A stretch of DNA of 64,000 bases from an uncultured Gammaproteobacteria bacterium. GTDB lineage: Bacteria > Pseudomonadota > Gammaproteobacteria > SG8-11. Positions within the stretch are counted from its first letter, which is position 1. Every line of letters starts with the position of its first letter. Positions 9,960-60,778 of this stretch are shown piece after piece. The stretch is taken from NCBI GenBank assembly GCA_964654485.1, contig CAZZJI010000011.1:1256-65255 (forward strand). The letters are read 5' to 3'. Under the pieces are notes generated by a model. The model ran no database searches. It saw nothing but the letters and a program-made list of their open reading frames with translations, and was not told the DNA's origin. The position numbers were made by a program, and so were the translations under genes.

Positions 9960-11970
9960 AGGTCACCTCAGCTTCTTCAACCGGGGCCAATTTATCGCGC
10001 CGTTTTTTCCACAAAAAATAGGCGCCCACCCCAATCAAACCCAGCAAGGCATTTACAACTAAGGCAATGGCAACAATCAAAACCCAACGCACACCCTCCT
10101 TCTCTCCCTCTTTATCTTCCGTCTTCTCTTCCTTTTTATCTTCCGCCTTCTCTTCCTCTTTCTCTTTCTTTATTGCTTTTTTCTTTTTAATTAACTTATT
10201 GTCTTGCGGCATGACTTCCGCGGCACCGCTATCGTTTTCCATAGAATTCGACAACTCCTTTATTTCACTCTCATGATCCGACTTAATTGAAACACTCTCT
10301 TCTTTATTTTCTTTATTTTCTTCATTAAGAGCATGAGCATCTGTTTTTTCGGACTCATCAGATACTGGCTGTTCAAGTTTGCCATCTTTTCCTATATACC
10401 CAGGAATTGTTTTTTCAATTTTAAATAATATTTTATCGCGATCCTTTACCCGGGCATAATATTCAATTATTAATGTTTCACCACTGTATTTTTTTGGCAG
10501 ATCAAAAGTCCATGTACTTTTATTTACTTCATTAATTTCTATGGCTAATGTTTCTTTCTCTATTTTTGCGACAAAAGATTTTATTTCCAGGCCTTTCAAT
10601 CGCAATTGATTCACCAAAGAAACTTGATAAACCTGCCCCTTTGCTGCATCCACTTGCGCGATCTCTGCACTTATTGGATCATTATGCACAGTAACAGCAA
10701 AAAACGCTTCTCGTTTAAATGTTGGGCCTTCAGCAATAATCGATATTTGATGCTTCCCTTTGAGCATATTTTTTAGTTTGGCATTATATTCACCATCACC
10801 TGTTTTTTGATCCGTATTCTCCCCATCATCCACTAAGGGTTCAAGTTGAAGCTCATCAGGCGATCCATCGGATGGCTTTGTATGTCTATAATTGAAATCT
10901 ATATGTTGAAGTAGTTTCTTATCATCAATAATTTCATTTTTTTGAATTAATTTGGCGCTTAGTAAAACTTCTTCGCCTTGTAATATATGATTTTCAATTT
11001 TTCTTGTCGACAGTTTTAAATTTGTCACCACCATAACCCGGTTGTCTGGGTCAATTTTCGAATTCATTCTCCAGGCACCCTCTTCCGGGTCATTGATTGT
11101 AATAAGATCGAAACCCTTTTCATGATGCCATTTCACATTTTTTGGGTGCTCGTTATTGCTAAATGATTTACCACCCGGAGTTAAAATACGTGTTTCCTTA
11201 TCTTTATCAGCGCGAAAAACAAGTAATGTCATGTCCTCAATACTTTTGTCTACGCCAAAGACATTATCGGTTAAAGGGAGTGTATCCGTCTGTGATGATT
11301 TTTCAAATAAGCGCAAAAATACACGTTGTAAATTGTTGGTGTCTTCCACTTTTTCATACCAGCCATCTGTTGAAACAGAAATCGTTTTCATTAACTCATG
11401 ATCGGCGTCTGACGACAGGGCAACGGTATGTACAGTGACGTCCGCATTTTTCAAGCGCGGTAAAATGGTTTTTATAATCCGCTCTCTGGATAATTTATTC
11501 AGCGTATTATCGTTCGAAACATCCACCATCCCATCACTAAGAAGAATAATAGTACGTTGAACTTTTGAATCGGGCTTGTTCCAATCAAAGGTGGACAGTC
11601 GTAATGCCTCTTCAATATTAGTAAACAAACCCAACGAATGAATATTGTCGGCTTCCTTTCGCGCTTTTTCGCGCCAGGACGAATTAACAATACCAAGTGG
11701 CACTGCCATGTTGACAAATTTTCCAAAGGTCCAGATACCTGAAGTTGCTGTTTCAGGCAATATACCCACTAACAAGCGTAACGCTGCCGAACGTAAATTA
11801 TCAGGATCTGTTCGCTTCATGCTTCCGGAAACATCAATCAGTACGCGCAAGTCTACCTTCGATTCTGCAGGAGAATCTGCGCTAAAAACCGGACCATTGG
11901 CAATCACCATCAAGAAGAAAAATAACAAACTCTTTGCCAAACAGGACCCTTTTATATAGAGCCTACTCAT
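9952..11970 (-). CDS. Secreted, membrane-anchored von Willebrand factor A (vWA) domain protein
   Basis: It has a signal peptide, the MIDAS motif DVSGSM near the N-terminus, a long beta-rich middle region, a K/E-rich low-complexity segment and a C-terminal TM helix followed by KKRRDK. Confidence 0.8.
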   Translation of the reverse strand: MSRLYIKGSCLAKSLLFFFLMVIANGPVFSADSPAESKVDLRVLIDVSGSMKRTDPDNLRSAALRLLVGILPETATSGIWTFGKFVNMAVPLGIVNSSWREKARKEADNIHSLGLFTNIEEALRLSTFDWNKPDSKVQRTIILLSDGMVDVSNDNTLNKLSRERIIKTILPRLKNADVTVHTVALSSDADHELMKTISVSTDGWYEKVEDTNNLQRVFLRLFEKSSQTDTLPLTDNVFGVDKSIEDMTLLVFRADKDKETRILTPGGKSFSNNEHPKNVKWHHEKGFDLITINDPEEGAWRMNSKIDPDNRVMVVTNLKLSTRKIENHILQGEEVLLSAKLIQKNEIIDDKKLLQHIDFNYRHTKPSDGSPDELQLEPLVDDGENTDQKTGDGEYNAKLKNMLKGKHQISIIAEGPTFKREAFFAVTVHNDPISAEIAQVDAAKGQVYQVSLVNQLRLKGLEIKSFVAKIEKETLAIEINEVNKSTWTFDLPKKYSGETLIIEYYARVKDRDKILFKIEKTIPGYIGKDGKLEQPVSDESEKTDAHALNEENKENKEESVSIKSDHESEIKELSNSMENDSGAAEVMPQDNKLIKKKKAIKKEKEEEKAEDKKEEKTEDKEGEKEGVRWVLIVAIALVVNALLGLIGVGAYFLWKKRRDKLAPVEEAEVTYE

Positions 11971-12066: not shown

Positions 12067-12564
12067 TTAAAATCTACCGCCGCCTACATAACGTTGACGC
12101 CAATAAGGATCGCCCAGTTTAGAGACCATGACTTTTTTACCAGAAGAGGGGGCATGAATAAAACGATCACTGCCCGCGTAGATACCAACATGCGACGTTT
12201 TGCTGCCGGCCAAATTAAAAAACACCAAATCACCTACATATAAATTCGATCTCTTAATACGCTTTGTATTGTTATAAAGTGACAATGCAGTGCGTGGTAC
12301 ATTCATCCCCGCCTTTTTATAGGAATAAAAAATCAAGCCACTGCAATCGAAACCTTTAAGCGTGGAACCGCCATAACGATAAGGTGTACCTATCACATTC
12401 TGCGCAATGCGCGCCGCATCCTGACCCAGGTTTTTACTATAAACCTTGCCAGCAGTTGGCTTGCCCTTGGTATGCCCCGCCGTGCGCTCAGGTGAATTAC
12501 CGCAACCAATAAAAATAATGGTCGTCGCCAGAATTAAACAGACAGAACGTATTGTCCTCATCAT
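12067..12564 (-). CDS. NlpC/P60 (C40) family peptidoglycan endopeptidase lipoprotein
   Basis: A lipobox is present (IFIGC). The catalytic Cys context GFDCSGLIFYSY and the downstream HVGIY motif are both visible. Confidence 0.85.
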   Translation of the reverse strand: MMRTIRSVCLILATTIIFIGCGNSPERTAGHTKGKPTAGKVYSKNLGQDAARIAQNVIGTPYRYGGSTLKGFDCSGLIFYSYKKAGMNVPRTALSLYNNTKRIKRSNLYVGDLVFFNLAGSKTSHVGIYAGSDRFIHAPSSGKKVMVSKLGDPYWRQRYVGGGRF

Positions 12565-12843
12565 CCACCTTGCTGGTTTTTTAACAGTATTTATTATTAT
12601 GCTTGATATCTCCTACTTTATGTCGGCTAAAAAGAATTTTTTTACAGTAAAATAAAACCACTTTTGGTGCGTCATGCCCCTAAAACATTAATTAAATACA
12701 ACAAGTTAAGACAACAATATTTTAAAATACGCAGGCCAATCAATATATCGTTATTGTATAATAATATCTATTTATAGTATTTCACATTATAATAAATATT
12801 GGATATTGTATGTTCACCCCCTTAAGTAAGACCCCTACCCACT

Positions 12844-12870
12844 AACCGCCTTAACCGGCGGTTTTTTTTT
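12844..12870 (+). terminator. Intrinsic terminator-like hairpin plus T9 run (copy 1)
   Basis: AACCGCC-ttaacc-GGCGGTT is followed by TTTTTTT (9 consecutive T counting the stem end). It is preceded by the conserved box CCCCCTTAAGTAAGACCCCTAC. Confidence 0.6.
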
Positions 12871-13016
12871 GCACATGGATGTGCTTATGTCTCGAGAGCA
12901 CATGGACGTGCGAAGAGACTTTGCACAGGGGATGTGCTTATGCCGTGAAGCCCATGGACGGACGAGAACGGCTTTGCACATGGATGTGCTTATGTCTCGA
13001 GAGCACAAAGACGTAA
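12871..13016 (+). repeat. Tandem array 1 of about 26-nt sub-units. Five GGA-loop hairpins with CsrA/RsmA-site character. Candidate regulatory RNA.
   Basis: Hairpins lie at 12871-84, 12898-911, 12923-37, 12950-63 and 12976-89 (GCAC-AUGGAU-GUGC type). The units alternate X-Y-X, each about 52 nt. The last sub-unit is degenerate. Confidence 0.85.
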
Positions 13017-13130
13017 CCCAACCATTATACAAAAATAAAATAATAATATAGATTTTAATTATTTTCCATTATATAAAAATCCCGATATAGTTTACCTACC
13101 CCCTTAAGTAATACCTCTACACCCCACTTT

Positions 13131-13160
13131 AAGCCGCCACCCCCAAGGCGGCTTTTTTTT
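13131..13160 (+). terminator. Intrinsic terminator-like hairpin plus T8 run (copy 2)
   Basis: AAGCCGCC-acccccaa-GGCGGCTT runs into TTTTTTTT. It is preceded by the box CCCCCTTAAGTAATACCTCTAC, homologous to copy 1. Confidence 0.6.
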
Positions 13161-13355
13161 GCACAGGGATGTGCTTATGTCTCGAGAGCACACGGACGTG
13201 CGAAGAGACTTTGCACAGGGATTGTGCTTATGCCGTGAAGCCCATGGACGGGCGAGAACGGCTTTGCACAGGGATTGTGCTTATGTCTCGAGAGCACATG
13301 GACGTGCGAAGAGACTTTGCTCAGAAATTGTGCTTATGCCACGAGCCCACAACCA
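13161..13355 (+). repeat. Tandem array 2 of about 26-nt sub-units. Six GGA-loop hairpins with CsrA/RsmA-site character. Candidate regulatory RNA or leader.
   Basis: Hairpins lie at 13161-74, 13188-201, 13213-27, 13240-53, 13266-80 and 13294-307. The units alternate X-Y-X-Y(degenerate). The array ends about 30 nt before the ATG at 13384. Confidence 0.85.
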
Positions 13356-13383
13356 CCCCAAAATACGTTACAATCCACAAACA

Positions 13384-15195
13384 ATGTATGACCTCTTCAA
13401 AACAACTAAACTTCTTCTACTCACCGTTTTGCTCATCCCACTCTATTCCCATGCCAAAATAATCAACATCCCTAATGATTTCTCAACAATTCAACAAGGG
13501 ATTGATGAAGCAACCGACGGAGATGAAATTGAGATTGAACCAGGCACATACAAAGAAAACCTGACCCTAAAAAGCAACATCGCACTACACGGTCTGGAAA
13601 CAGCCCGAACCATCATCGACGCACCCAACAGTAGCCCGGCGATAAGTATCAATAACTACACCAATGTCACTATTCAAAATCTCACGTTCACCAGTTCAAC
13701 AATCGGCATCCAGATAACCAACAGCACTAGCAACATTATTATTACCAACAACGTGTTTGCGCTGGGAACCCGTGCCACGCCCAATGGCACTGCGATCGAC
13801 GTAACTGACGATATCTCTGATGTCAGTATCTTTTTTAATACCTTTTACGGCAACGATATCGCAATAGACCGTAATTCTAATTTATCTATTGAAAACAATA
13901 TTTTTTCAGACAACACGACAGACATCGAAAGCGGCCTTGAAACCAATATTCATTTCAATTGCTTCGATTCTGCCAAAACGGCAGACAGTAACTTCGGCAG
14001 TAGCTTCGTTGATAACGCAAATATTTCATTTGCTGATGTAGGATTAAAGGATTTTCACTTGCAAGCGCAAGCGGACCCGAACCCGGATCCGGATCCGGAC
14101 CGATCCTGCATTGATCTTAGCAATGCAAGTGGCAAAACTGACATCATCGACAGCACTGTCGCTGACGCCGGCGCCTACGGCGGCGACAACGCAGACCCAC
14201 TTCCGTACCCACCACAAAATATATTATTGACGCTCGGTGGCACAACCCTCGAACCAGAAATCAAAGTTGAGTGGAACGATAACCTGTCCTACCTAATCGG
14301 TGGCTACAAGGTATTTTATGACTCTGATAAGTCTGGTCCACCCTACGATGGCAAAACCAATACCGGAGTCGCCACAGAAAATTCACCAACAGATGTTGCA
14401 CTACCACTGCTGGAGATAGAAAAGGTATTAAAAGATTTAATTGTACCCGCACCCACGATAACGCCGTCTGTTATAAGCGTCTCTCCCAGTTCACAAACGT
14501 TGGATATAAGCTGGACTGCGAACCCGAATGTAACGAGTTATACATTAAATTACGGCATTACCAGTGTAACTGAAAATACGGAGACAGAGATAACAGGAAC
14601 CAATTTTACTATTACAGGTTTAACGAATAATACCGCTTATCAAATCATGGTAACGTCACACTCTCAACCAAAGTTCTATATTGCGGTTAAAACTTACGAC
14701 AATACAACAACGGCGACCGAAAGTAACTTTTCGTTAGAAAAATCCATCAACGTAGGCACCCAAACTGATACACCATCAAGTGTCGTCACCTCAATACCGG
14801 AAGAAGTGGTGGCTTTTCCAAATTTACCGGGCGAAGGCTGCTTTATTGCGACCGCGGCGTTCGGCTATTACTCAGCACCGCAAGTGCAGATATTACGTGA
14901 CTTCCGCGATCAATTCTTACTTAACAACCCGGCAGGTAAAATATTTGTTGATTGGTACTACCGCAATGGCCCCGTCGCCGCACAATATTTACATCGTTAC
15001 CCGGAAATGAAACCTATTGTCAGGGCATTACTATTTCCACTTATTTATTTCGCTAAGTTCTTACTCAACACGGCTATTGCCACACAATTACTGGTCACGT
15101 CGTTATTGATGATTTTAATTATTATTTTCATGCATTCTCAAATTAAAAGCCGAATTAAAAACCGAAGAAGAAATCGCAATGTACATTACAGCTAA
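13384..15195 (+). CDS. Secreted right-handed beta-helix (PbH1) repeat protein with FN3-like domains and a C-terminal Cys-motif and TM module
   Basis: The signal peptide MYDLFKTTKLLLLTVLLIPLYSHA starts at the ATG at 13384. The track's TTG at 13159 reads through the repeats and is rejected. Repeated NxTIxNxxF turns are present (NVTIQNLTF, NIIITNNVF, NLSIENNIF). There is a PNPDPDPD linker and FN3-like segments (…LDISWTANPNVTSYTLNYG…TNNTAYQIMV). The C-terminus reads GEGCFIATAAFGYYSAPQVQILRDFRDQFLL, followed by hydrophobic helices and a basic tail. Confidence 0.8.
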   Translation: MYDLFKTTKLLLLTVLLIPLYSHAKIINIPNDFSTIQQGIDEATDGDEIEIEPGTYKENLTLKSNIALHGLETARTIIDAPNSSPAISINNYTNVTIQNLTFTSSTIGIQITNSTSNIIITNNVFALGTRATPNGTAIDVTDDISDVSIFFNTFYGNDIAIDRNSNLSIENNIFSDNTTDIESGLETNIHFNCFDSAKTADSNFGSSFVDNANISFADVGLKDFHLQAQADPNPDPDPDRSCIDLSNASGKTDIIDSTVADAGAYGGDNADPLPYPPQNILLTLGGTTLEPEIKVEWNDNLSYLIGGYKVFYDSDKSGPPYDGKTNTGVATENSPTDVALPLLEIEKVLKDLIVPAPTITPSVISVSPSSQTLDISWTANPNVTSYTLNYGITSVTENTETEITGTNFTITGLTNNTAYQIMVTSHSQPKFYIAVKTYDNTTTATESNFSLEKSINVGTQTDTPSSVVTSIPEEVVAFPNLPGEGCFIATAAFGYYSAPQVQILRDFRDQFLLNNPAGKIFVDWYYRNGPVAAQYLHRYPEMKPIVRALLFPLIYFAKFLLNTAIATQLLVTSLLMILIIIFMHSQIKSRIKNRRRNRNVHYS

Positions 15196-15856
15196 TAAAT
15201 TAGTCCAGCTCGTCACGCTGATTCTGATATCGGTTTTACAGATAAGCTCCGCCTATGCCAAATCGGCAGACAAAAAAAACGCGATAGCAGAAAAACCAAG
15301 CTGGACACTTGAATTCAAGATCGGGCGCTTTGAGCCAGATATTGATAACTGGGAAACATTTTATGGAAATGATTATACGCATGATTTAGCAGGGGCGTTC
15401 TCATATAAACTGTTAGAGCAGATTGAATTTGGCCTACAAGGTGGCTGGATCAGAGACCGGGGACAAGGCTTTTTACCCAGCAATAATATTGCCGGAGGCA
15501 GAGTAAAATATCAGTTGTTTCCTCTGAATGCATTTGTATTATTCCGCGGGATATATACGCCCAATCAATGGTTCGTGCCGTATATCGGTGGCGGTTTCTC
15601 AAGGACTTATTACAAAATAAATATCGAAAATCAAAGTAGCATTGATGGCGCTGAAAATGGCACACACTATCGCGCTGGTATTCAGTTTTTATTGAACAAT
15701 ATTAATAAAAAAGGCACGCGTAATTTAAGAAAGTCGTATGGCATAATCAATACGTATTTTTTTATTGAAGTCCAGGAACTGAAAGCAGAAGTTGGCTCAT
15801 TAAACCTCGATATTGGCGGAAGAAGCACGATGATGGGTATTTTACTGGAATACTAG
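15179..15856 (+). CDS. Small outer-membrane beta-barrel protein (family unassigned)
   Basis: It has a signal peptide (…ISSAYA/KS) and alternating amphipathic beta-strand pattern with G/Y-rich strands. The C-terminus ends in an aromatic residue (…GILLEY). The start overlaps the upstream gene by 17 nt. Confidence 0.65.
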   Translation: MYITANKLVQLVTLILISVLQISSAYAKSADKKNAIAEKPSWTLEFKIGRFEPDIDNWETFYGNDYTHDLAGAFSYKLLEQIEFGLQGGWIRDRGQGFLPSNNIAGGRVKYQLFPLNAFVLFRGIYTPNQWFVPYIGGGFSRTYYKINIENQSSIDGAENGTHYRAGIQFLLNNINKKGTRNLRKSYGIINTYFFIEVQELKAEVGSLNLDIGGRSTMMGILLEY

Positions 15857-41180: not shown

Positions 41181-41363
41181 AAAACTACTCCTTATCAGGG
41201 TTAGGCCTCCATATATCCCATGTACTAACCTTTGCCGATTATTTGCACAACACAGTTGTACAAATTCAGTAAGGCACCCTAGCCCATGTGTCGATATATG
41301 TGCGTAATTAAGGAACTATTTACTCTCTTTCACTCTTCTCGACCCAGCTCTCTCTCACCTTAC

Positions 41364-60692: not shown

Positions 60693-60778
60693 GCCGAGGT
60701 GGTGAAATTGGTAGACACGCATGCTTCAGGTGCATGTGAGCTTTGCTCATGGAGGTTCAAGTCCTCTCCTCGGCACCA
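60693..60778 (+). tRNA. tRNA-Leu (anticodon CAG), class II with a long variable arm and encoded CCA
   Basis: The acceptor stem GCCGAGG/CCTCGGC is followed by A and CCA. The anticodon stem CATGC/GCATG carries the loop TTCAGGT, giving anticodon CAG. The variable arm is TGAGCTTTGCTCA and the T-loop is GGTTCAAGTCC. Confidence 0.9.

Follow-up and report, generated by a model that had tools for sequence, protein, structure and literature searches.

Tandem arrays of GGA-loop hairpins behind a terminator in an uncultured gammaproteobacterial lineage are best explained as a CsrA-decoy RNA

The 64,000-nt stretch of contig CAZZJI010000011.1 analyzed here (hereafter, the window) is a segment of a gammaproteobacterial chromosome with a G+C content of 42.8%; its genes include dnaE, the bamA-lpx cluster, and rpsB, the last with its t44 RNA. 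When EF-Ts sequences were compared, relatives were found only among metagenome-assembled genomes (MAGs) of Gammaproteobacteria, with named matches at ≤70% identity; the lineage is one without a cultured close relative. In the window, an 820-bp gap separates a gene for an NlpC/P60 peptidase (12067–12564, − strand) from the ATG at 13384 of an open reading frame (ORF) on the + strand. The + strand 3′ of the gap carries a secreted fn3/beta-helix gene and an outer-membrane beta-barrel gene, which form an operon (13384–15856), and then a GGDEF-EAL gene. The gap itself holds two arrays of tandem repeats, each preceded by a sigma70-like promoter, a C-rich leader, and a terminator-like hairpin (Table 1). 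A first-pass annotation had described a folded element here and had given it no function; the structure stands, and we add that its loop motif is of the CsrA/RsmA type and that the arrays lie directly behind a terminator. What the analysis below establishes directly is the fold with its covariation, the loop motif, and the conserved succession of promoter, leader, terminator, and array; binding of CsrA, a role as a sponge, and read-through are inferred from these.

Table 1. Coordinates of the promoters, leaders, terminator-like hairpins, and repeat units in the gap (positions in the window)
Feature	Position	Strand	Description
Promoter 1, sigma70-like	12781..12809	+	TTCACA, 17-nt spacer, TATTGT; promoter scan; blocks conserved in position in all related loci
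Leader 1, C-rich, G-poor	12814..12843	+	UCACCCCCUUAAGUAAGACCCCUACCCACU; predicted to be unstructured
Terminator-like hairpin 1	12844..12870	+	AACCGCC-uuaacc-GGCGGUU + 9 U; −11.0 kcal/mol; in every locus; abuts array 1
Array 1	12868 to ~13014	+	X 12868–12919, Y 12920–12972, decayed third unit (X) 12973 to ~13014
Array 1, GGA-loop hairpins	12871–12884, 12898–12911, 12923–12937, 12951–12964, 12976–12989	+	
Array 1, nested B hairpins	12889–12919, 12942–12972	+	Covariance-model matches; the first encloses 12898–12911, the second 12951–12964 (one C·A mismatch)
Promoter 2, sigma70-like	13063..13091	+	TTTCCA, 17-nt spacer, TATAGT; conserved in copy 2 of the module in L001, L004, and L007
Leader 2, C-rich	13096..13130	+	CUACCCCCUUAAGUAAUACCUCUACACCCCACUUU
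Terminator-like hairpin 2	13131..13160	+	AAGCCGCC-acccccaa-GGCGGCUU + 8 U; −14.3 kcal/mol; abuts array 2
Array 2	13158 to ~13350	+	X 13158–13209, Y 13210–13262, X 13263–13315, decayed Y 13316 to ~13350
Array 2, GGA-loop hairpins	13161–13174, 13188–13201, 13213–13227, 13240–13253, 13266–13280, 13294–13307	+	
Array 2, nested B hairpins	13179–13209, 13232–13262, 13285–13315	+	

Each unit of 52–53 nt (Tandem Repeats Finder gave periods of 52 and 53 for the arrays) consists, in order, of UUU, a simple hairpin (A), UUAU, and a nested hairpin (B). Hairpin A has the form GCAC-A[U/G]GGAU[U]-GUGC, and in hairpin B, a purine-rich G...A / G...A internal loop separates the outer stem (5 bp) from the inner stem (4 bp). 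Two types of hairpin B alternate: type X, GUCUC-gaga-GCAC-auggac-GUGC-gaa-GAGAC (e.g., 12889–12919), and type Y, GCCGU-gaa-GCCC-auggac-GGGC-gaga-ACGGC (e.g., 13232–13262). As the first-pass annotation had proposed, the two share one nested hairpin in which the changes are compensated, with three of the five outer pairs and one of the four inner pairs changed on both sides; the single uncompensated change that it reported in the Y unit of array 1 was found as well, GGAC replacing GGGC and leaving a C·A mismatch. The supposed invariance of the AUGGAC loop holds for most units but not for all, because the unit at 13179–13209 has ACGGAC and the decayed third unit of array 1 has AAAGAC. On its 5′ side, the internal loop has a G beside the outer stem and an A beside the inner stem, and on its 3′ side a G beside the inner stem; across 18 B units, these purines are conserved (G6 in 17 of 18, G24 in all). 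A K-turn reading of this loop was rejected because the strand arrangement does not fit one, and nothing more specific than a purine loop with closing G·A pairs is claimed. When units and arrays were folded, as the annotation had suggested, the proposed structure was both the minimum-free-energy and the centroid fold in four of the five complete units (z-scores −1.4 to −3.5), and both whole arrays folded better than their shuffles (z-scores −3.5 and −3.0).

To compare this structure across genomes, orthologous loci were collected. A genome scan anchored on NlpC/P60 yielded one relevant locus, L001, on a contig from an uncultured Gammaproteobacteria MAG, and further loci were taken from the contigs of NlpC/P60 homologues, giving a total of 17 loci with the module (the window and 16 related metagenomic loci). 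The module was not present in two further NlpC clades that were examined, and a metagenome scan with the leader motif CCCCTTAAGTAMKACC returned at least 119 loci, those listed being chance matches without exception. Across the 17 loci, the stem of hairpin A occurs as GCAC/GUGC, GCGC/GCGC, UGCC/GGCA, and GGCC/GGCC; the outer stem of hairpin B as GUCUC/GAGAC, GCCGU/ACGGC, AUCUC/GAGAU, GUCAU/AUGAC, GUCGC/GCGAC, and GCCGU/GCGGC; and its inner stem as GCAC/GUGC, GCCC/GGGC, ACAC/GUGU, and GGGC/GCCC. In an alignment of 18 distinct B units, padded with N where an internal-loop side has 3 nt or 4 nt, 95.1% of the cells were paired, seven of the nine pairs had changed on both sides, and 32 cells were compensated, whereas slid controls were only 20–46% paired. 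The covariation score was 0.537, compared with 0.198 in shuffles, and none of 500 shuffles reached it; hairpin A behaved similarly (96.4% paired, 10 compensated cells, 0/500 shuffles as high), but because the units were picked and padded by structure and are mutually paralogous or orthologous, these shuffle counts are not probabilities; even so, many different stem versions occur. Uncompensated cells, which in orthologues would speak against a conserved fold, were few in hairpin B (8/162) and confined to terminal or decaying units or to apparent chimeras of two unit types, such as GCAC...GCCC in L133 and GGAC...GUGC in L135. Furthermore, a covariance model of hairpin B matched only the arrays, always on the expected strand, when 144 kb was searched on both strands. 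The repeat pattern is beyond chance, since GCACAKGGAYGTGC occurs six times against 0.05 expected and the covariation exceeds all shuffles and slid controls. Taken together, these results bear out the earlier claim of selection on a folded nucleic acid and support with high confidence the proposition that the repeats are a selected RNA structure.

The same variation in the stems bears on whether the repeats act as DNA, as REP/BIME-like elements, iterons, or protein-binding dyads, or as a coding sequence. Tandem repeats with dyad symmetry would suit the former, and an ORF at 13159–15195 that is open through array 2 would suit the latter. However, different stems within one genome keep their pairing, which a single DNA-binding protein would not require, and no copies of the repeats were found in the rest of the window, in the flanks of the related loci, or in plasmid, phage, and viral contig collections. 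Nor is the open frame conserved (92 codons in the window versus 13 in L004 and 12 in L006, where it is closed), and a period of 52–53 nt is not a multiple of three. We therefore regard a DNA-level or coding role as extremely improbable, in line with the first-pass view that neither a coding sequence nor a simple protein-binding dyad would give such a pattern. As an aside for annotation, the frame of the downstream gene can be followed upstream without interruption across the whole of array 2, as far as a TTG at 13159 (13159–13383, 92 codons before the ATG), so that gene callers could wrongly extend the downstream ORF.

While the stems vary, a set of positions in and around the loops does not. 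In hairpin B, columns C13, A14, G16, G17, A18, and G20 are invariant, and in hairpin A, C7, A8, G10, and G15 are invariant and G11 and A12 nearly so; together, the invariant letters of the two hairpins read C-A-n-G-G-A-n-G, which corresponds to the high-affinity recognition sequence of CsrA/RsmA translational regulators. Systematic evolution of ligands by exponential enrichment gave RUACARGGAUGU as the consensus for CsrA, with ACA and GGA fully conserved and GGA placed in a hairpin loop (PMC4347634), and the consensus for RsmA/RsmF is CANGGAYG in a stem-loop (bioRxiv 10.1101/315341). Exact CANGGAYG occurs 13 times on the two strands of the window; eight of these fall within the arrays (480 nt; + strand in every case) and five within the remaining 127 kb, and three further array hairpins carry the motif with one inserted base. 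The 11 GGA-loop hairpins occupy ~340 nt, and successive GGA motifs, counted from the coordinates, are 25–27 nt apart. According to Mercante et al. 2009, one CsrA dimer reportedly binds two sites 10–63 nt apart. The spacing found here falls inside that range, so that one dimer could bridge neighboring hairpins; pairing of sites is general for CsrA, in keeping with its dimeric state (PMC4333381). Of the features by which Kulkarni et al. 2006 (PMC1488887) characterized CsrA-regulating small RNAs, three are seen here: an intergenic location, a high density of the motif (AGGA / AnGGA; here also CANGGAYG), and GGA placed repeatedly in loops, which in this case is given by minimum-free-energy and centroid folds with stems backed by covariation. 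On this evidence from sequence and predicted structure, the array hairpins quite likely bind a protein of the CsrA family.

The sequence that precedes each array is likewise a conserved unit. A −35 element (TTTACA-like), a 17-nt spacer, and a −10 element are conserved in position on the + strand in all copies, and transcription from promoter 1 would start at ~12815, just 5′ of ACCCCC. The C-rich, G-poor leader that follows has a length of 30–35 nt and contains the motif ACCCC[C]UUAAGUA...CCUACACCC (ACCCCUUAAGUA..CCUACACCC), of which at least 20 copies were found in the 17 loci. In all loci, every array starts right after a GC-rich hairpin and a run of 8–10 U, with stems of 7–8 bp and folding energies of −11 to −16.5 kcal/mol; a GC-rich hairpin followed by a U-run, on the transcribed strand and 3′ of a promoter, is the definition of an intrinsic terminator, and the predicted hairpins have all of these features. 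Conservation of this promoter–leader–terminator core exceeds that of the arrays, and the core persists even where the GGA arrays have decayed (L137 714–774, L138 2702–2766, and L140 2701–2765, all on the − strand of those loci). In its layout, it looks like a gene for a small RNA of ~60 nt. A long U tail of this kind is typical of Hfq-binding small RNAs. The core matched no Rfam family, and its weak matches to mmgR, BjrC1505, and isrD were below threshold.

If both parts are read together, the repeats would be RNA modules of the + strand that form a protein sponge of the Csr/Rsm type. The conserved sigma70-type promoter ~55–65 nt upstream would transcribe the arrays through read-through of the hairpin and its U8–9 run, so that a single promoter would yield two RNAs, a short one ending at the terminator and a longer one that binds CsrA. 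With each CsrA dimer bridging two neighboring hairpins, 11 hairpins could hold about five dimers, and the array RNA, like CsrB/CsrC and RsmX/Y/Z, would titrate CsrA off the mRNAs that it targets. Alternating stem versions, present in three of five arrays, may keep neighboring units from pairing with one another. That the arrays are such a CsrA-decoy RNA, transcribed from the + strand by read-through, is the best explanation of the data and, in our judgment, a moderately probable one; that they act in trans as a sponge made by read-through has about an even chance.

Expression is the weakest link in this argument. Because the arrays have no promoter of their own that we could find and lie behind a terminator, their expression must be inferred as terminator read-through, and read-through from the upstream promoter is the only simple route. 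Two other promoters were considered and rejected: a sigma70 promoter inside the leader or the U-run has no acceptable −10 element, and a sigma54 promoter across the terminator (GG-N10-GC) would have a spacing of N8 to N10 that is inconsistent between loci. An antiterminator suggested by RNAalifold, in which the CCCC of the leader pairs with the 3′ arm GGCGG, is not credible, with four pairs and a mismatch against a perfect terminator stem of 7–8 bp. The possibility that the arrays are a sponge for the C-rich core RNA was also dismissed, since the duplex energies were no better than those of shuffles and there is no special complementarity. For array 1, the sole terminator downstream (13131–13160) is not reached until 120 nt further on, past the second promoter; that a C/A-rich, G-poor stretch after the arrays might serve as a Rho-dependent terminator is speculation. 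A precedent for such read-through exists in E. coli, where RrA/B/F, which bind CsrA and Hfq, are produced by read-through past a first terminator (PMC8144298).

Several observations weigh against the CsrA-decoy reading. The terminators directly 5′ of the arrays look efficient, judging from the energies and U-runs given above, and no conserved antiterminator was found. Two of the features listed by Kulkarni et al. are lacking: there is no rho-independent terminator 3′ of the arrays, none lying between array 2 and the ORF, and no match with ≤3 mismatches to the GacA/UvrY box TGTAAG-N6-CTTACA was found in 12565–13160, although a csrC-type matrix was not searched. A conserved upstream UvrY/GacA site is a defining criterion in that scheme (PMC1488887), and the sequence upstream of the modules is conserved in related loci but unlike such a site. 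None of the Rfam models CsrB, CsrC, RsmX, RsmY, PrrB_RsmZ, RsmV, and TwoAYGGAY matched at the gathering score, and when the searches were relaxed to E ≤ 10 or E ≤ 5, the locus and its orthologues gave only noise, the best being a local single-hairpin match to RsmV at 6.7 bits against a threshold of 100. No csrA gene lies within the window; to our knowledge, CsrA is near-universal in Gammaproteobacteria. Finally, both strands of the units fold equally well, and the wobble pairs in hairpin B (3 G·U versus 3 A·C cells) leave the strand undecided.

These last two points, together with stems that are almost all Watson-Crick, would also be expected if the functional RNA came from the − strand, for example as an antisense RNA or an upstream leader of NlpC/P60 with UCC-containing loops. 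In contrast, the −35, the −10, the leader, and the U-run are all conserved on the + strand in all loci, the − strand has neither a terminator nor a conserved promoter, and it is only when read from the + strand that the loop motif carries a known meaning. Furthermore, the NlpC/P60 gene has its own conserved promoter block near its start and hence needs no long antisense leader. A functional − strand RNA is therefore very improbable. The lack of a match to any Csr/Rsm family model and of a GacA box could also mean that the partner is a different RNA-binding protein with a preference for AYGGAY loops on stems flanked by G·A, or that the arrays are a processed repeat RNA, their likeness to CsrA sites being coincidental. 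Such a reading would accommodate the conserved purines G6 and G24 of the internal loop, which CsrA does not require, and the TwoAYGGAY motif, which has similar features, is itself still of unproven function (PMC4333381). Against it, the invariant letters correspond to CANGGAYG position for position in two hairpins whose stems are otherwise different, and we consider it distinctly improbable. We know of no other bacterial protein with CANGGAYG specificity.

The genes next to the arrays raise a further alternative, in which promoter, attenuator-like leader-terminator, and GGA hairpins are the long 5′ untranslated region of operon 13384–15856, and CsrA controls the transcription or translation of that operon instead of being titrated. 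In the window and in L004, L006, L007, and L136, the ORF indeed comes after the array and no terminator separates the two; the same ORF begins 60–70 nt downstream of the leader-terminator in L137, L138, and L140; and the ORF has no Shine-Dalgarno sequence. However, L012 keeps the module without such an ORF, its array being followed by a convergent MFS gene and not by the beta-helix ORF, which indicates that the array is independent of the downstream gene. In loci with two copies, what comes after array 1 is another promoter and terminator and not an ORF. The ORF also has its own conserved TACAAT 6–9 nt before the ATG in seven of eight loci (30 nt in L136), and the GGA sites keep a distance of ≥40 nt to the start codon, with none overlapping a ribosome-binding site. 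A cis-acting leader is accordingly an unlikely explanation. The element before the ORF merits mention in its own right: at 13367–13386, and at the same place in L004, L006, L007, L136–L138, and L140, a conserved G(G/T)TACAAT precedes the secreted-protein ORF, which suggests that the downstream mRNA may be leaderless or near-leaderless with a −10 element of its own.

If the arrays are a CsrA-decoy RNA made by read-through, the whole module may be a two-output RNA gene, which on termination yields an Hfq-type C-rich small RNA and on read-through a CsrA sponge, so that termination efficiency, and not a GacA/UvrY-activated promoter, would set CsrA activity. We offer this only tentatively, and on balance doubt it; if true, such a gene would couple two post-transcriptional regulons, and the module would have been kept across an uncultured gammaproteobacterial clade while the array expands, homogenizes, and decays.

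The history of the module is consistent with such changes in the array. Unit number and stem sequences vary between loci, and the module is duplicated whole in the window, L001, L004, and L007. For the window and L004, where identities were computed, leader 1 and leader 2 of the same genome agree at 67.5–68%, but each agrees with its orthologues at 87–92%, indicating that the duplication is old. The arrays show the opposite relation: the two arrays of the window share 93.9% identity, compared with ~80% between orthologous arrays and 67.5% between the two leaders of the window, which suggests that arrays are homogenized within a genome and turn over rapidly. The identity extends over 12857–12985 and 13147–13275 (94–95%), which include the last bases of the terminators, as against 67.5% for the promoters and leaders in front, a pattern suggestive of gene conversion or of recent copying between the arrays of one genome. 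Fast turnover with the motif retained is as expected of a sponge, and genes for Rsm small RNAs have been amplified by duplication (PMC7911923). The most distant relatives, L137, L138, and L140 (NlpC 50–54% identical), have an intact core followed only by decayed traces of a unit, such as GUGAAGCCGCCAGGAUACAAAGAAC in L140 compared with the Y sequence GUGAAGCCCAUGGACGGGCGAGAAC, so that at least one unit seems to be ancestral to the clade.

Some related loci and other repeats in the window showed additional features. In L136 (1420–2210, − strand), the array takes another form, in which C/A-rich spacers (..AACAAAACCNCCAAACCAGCAAACUAGCAC..) lie between four hairpin-B units repeated at a period of ~95 nt, and a single hairpin A stands at the start; the spacers resemble A-rich (ARN-like) Hfq or Crc-type motifs and may be candidates for such sites. 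Six independent metagenome contigs of related organisms (L005, L008–L011, and L013) end in or just before the leader, terminator, or array, which is consistent with assembly breaks at a variable repeat. Elsewhere in the window, a tandem repeat of the CTCTTT/CTTCTCTTCC type lies within a VWA-domain gene (10096–10188, − strand) and five CGGACC hexamers lie inside the beta-helix/fn3 gene (14072–14101), both probably encoding low-complexity linkers. The t44 RNA (RF00127, 74 bits; 41200–41322, − strand) upstream of rpsB has a 33-nt insertion in its terminal loop, and an 83-nt tRNA with a long variable arm lies at 60693–60775 on the + strand.

Should the CsrA-decoy interpretation hold, the arrays would supply a Csr/Rsm antagonist RNA for an uncultured gammaproteobacterial lineage and add a family that has no Rfam entry. 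They would also illustrate a route by which a protein-sponge RNA grows, in which a two-hairpin module is tandemly duplicated, alternating stems let the units fold independently, and the arrays are homogenized within a genome. If they are made by read-through, they would be a simple natural system in which to study the control of CsrA by termination efficiency. Intergenic regions with repeats are discarded by the classic predictor of Csr small RNAs (PMC1488887), and arrays of this type may therefore have been overlooked systematically.

Among known systems, the closest counterparts are CsrB/CsrC of Enterobacteria and Vibrio and RsmX/RsmY/RsmZ/RsmV/RsmW of Pseudomonas, which are likewise intergenic and non-coding, with many hairpins whose loops present GGA within CANGGAYG or RUACARGGAUGU (PMC4347634; bioRxiv 10.1101/315341). 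They also share site spacings that a dimer can bridge, fast sequence evolution, and frequent gene duplication (PMC7911923). The arrays resemble them neither in sequence nor by covariance model, and are set apart further by a tandem module of strictly 52 nt that alternates between two stem versions, by the absence of a GacA/UvrY box, and by a terminator before the GGA hairpins and not after them. The TwoAYGGAY motif (RF01731), which is found in Gammaproteobacteria among others and is predicted to bind CsrA, has AYGGAY terminal loops and tandem G·A pairs (PMC4333381, PMC2864571), and hairpin B resembles it in its AUGGAC or AUGGAU loops and its G...A / G...A internal loop. However, the RF01731 model gave no match even at E ≤ 10 on 196 nt, the loops of hairpin A are often AGGGAU and not AYGGAY, and the units here form a tandem array behind a terminator. 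E. coli RrA/RrB/RrF are alike in being RNA past a first intrinsic terminator that interacts with CsrA and Hfq in vitro (PMC8144298), and array 1 similarly lies between two terminators (12844–12870 and 13131–13160). The Rr RNAs, by contrast, lie at the ends of rRNA operons, have no repeat arrays, and are directly followed by the second terminator, whereas here a short C-rich leader with its own promoter lies upstream and array 2 has no second terminator.

Hfq-type small RNAs such as McaS combine a single-stranded seed and a long-U-tail terminator with CsrA sites (compare PMC10729762). The module would resemble McaS in that one locus is predicted to give both a base-pairing Hfq-type module and CsrA sites, but the GGA sites of McaS are inside the terminated RNA, whereas here they lie beyond the terminator, which would place the two activities on different isoforms. 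ToxI of type III toxin-antitoxin systems also consists of short structured RNA repeats in tandem, with a terminator alongside; its order is promoter, repeats, terminator, and toxin gene, in contrast to the terminator followed by an array with GGA loops seen here, and no ToxN-like gene occurs among the neighbors (NlpC/P60, fn3/beta-helix, and outer-membrane beta-barrel). With three of the Kulkarni features present, the 3′ terminator and the GacA/UvrY box absent, and no Rfam match, we do not file the element in an existing family. We describe it instead as a new family by sequence and, within the CsrA-decoy kind, as a new variant by architecture, absent from Rfam and distinguished by its strict two-hairpin tandem module, its alternating stems, and its place after the terminator of a conserved small-RNA-like core.

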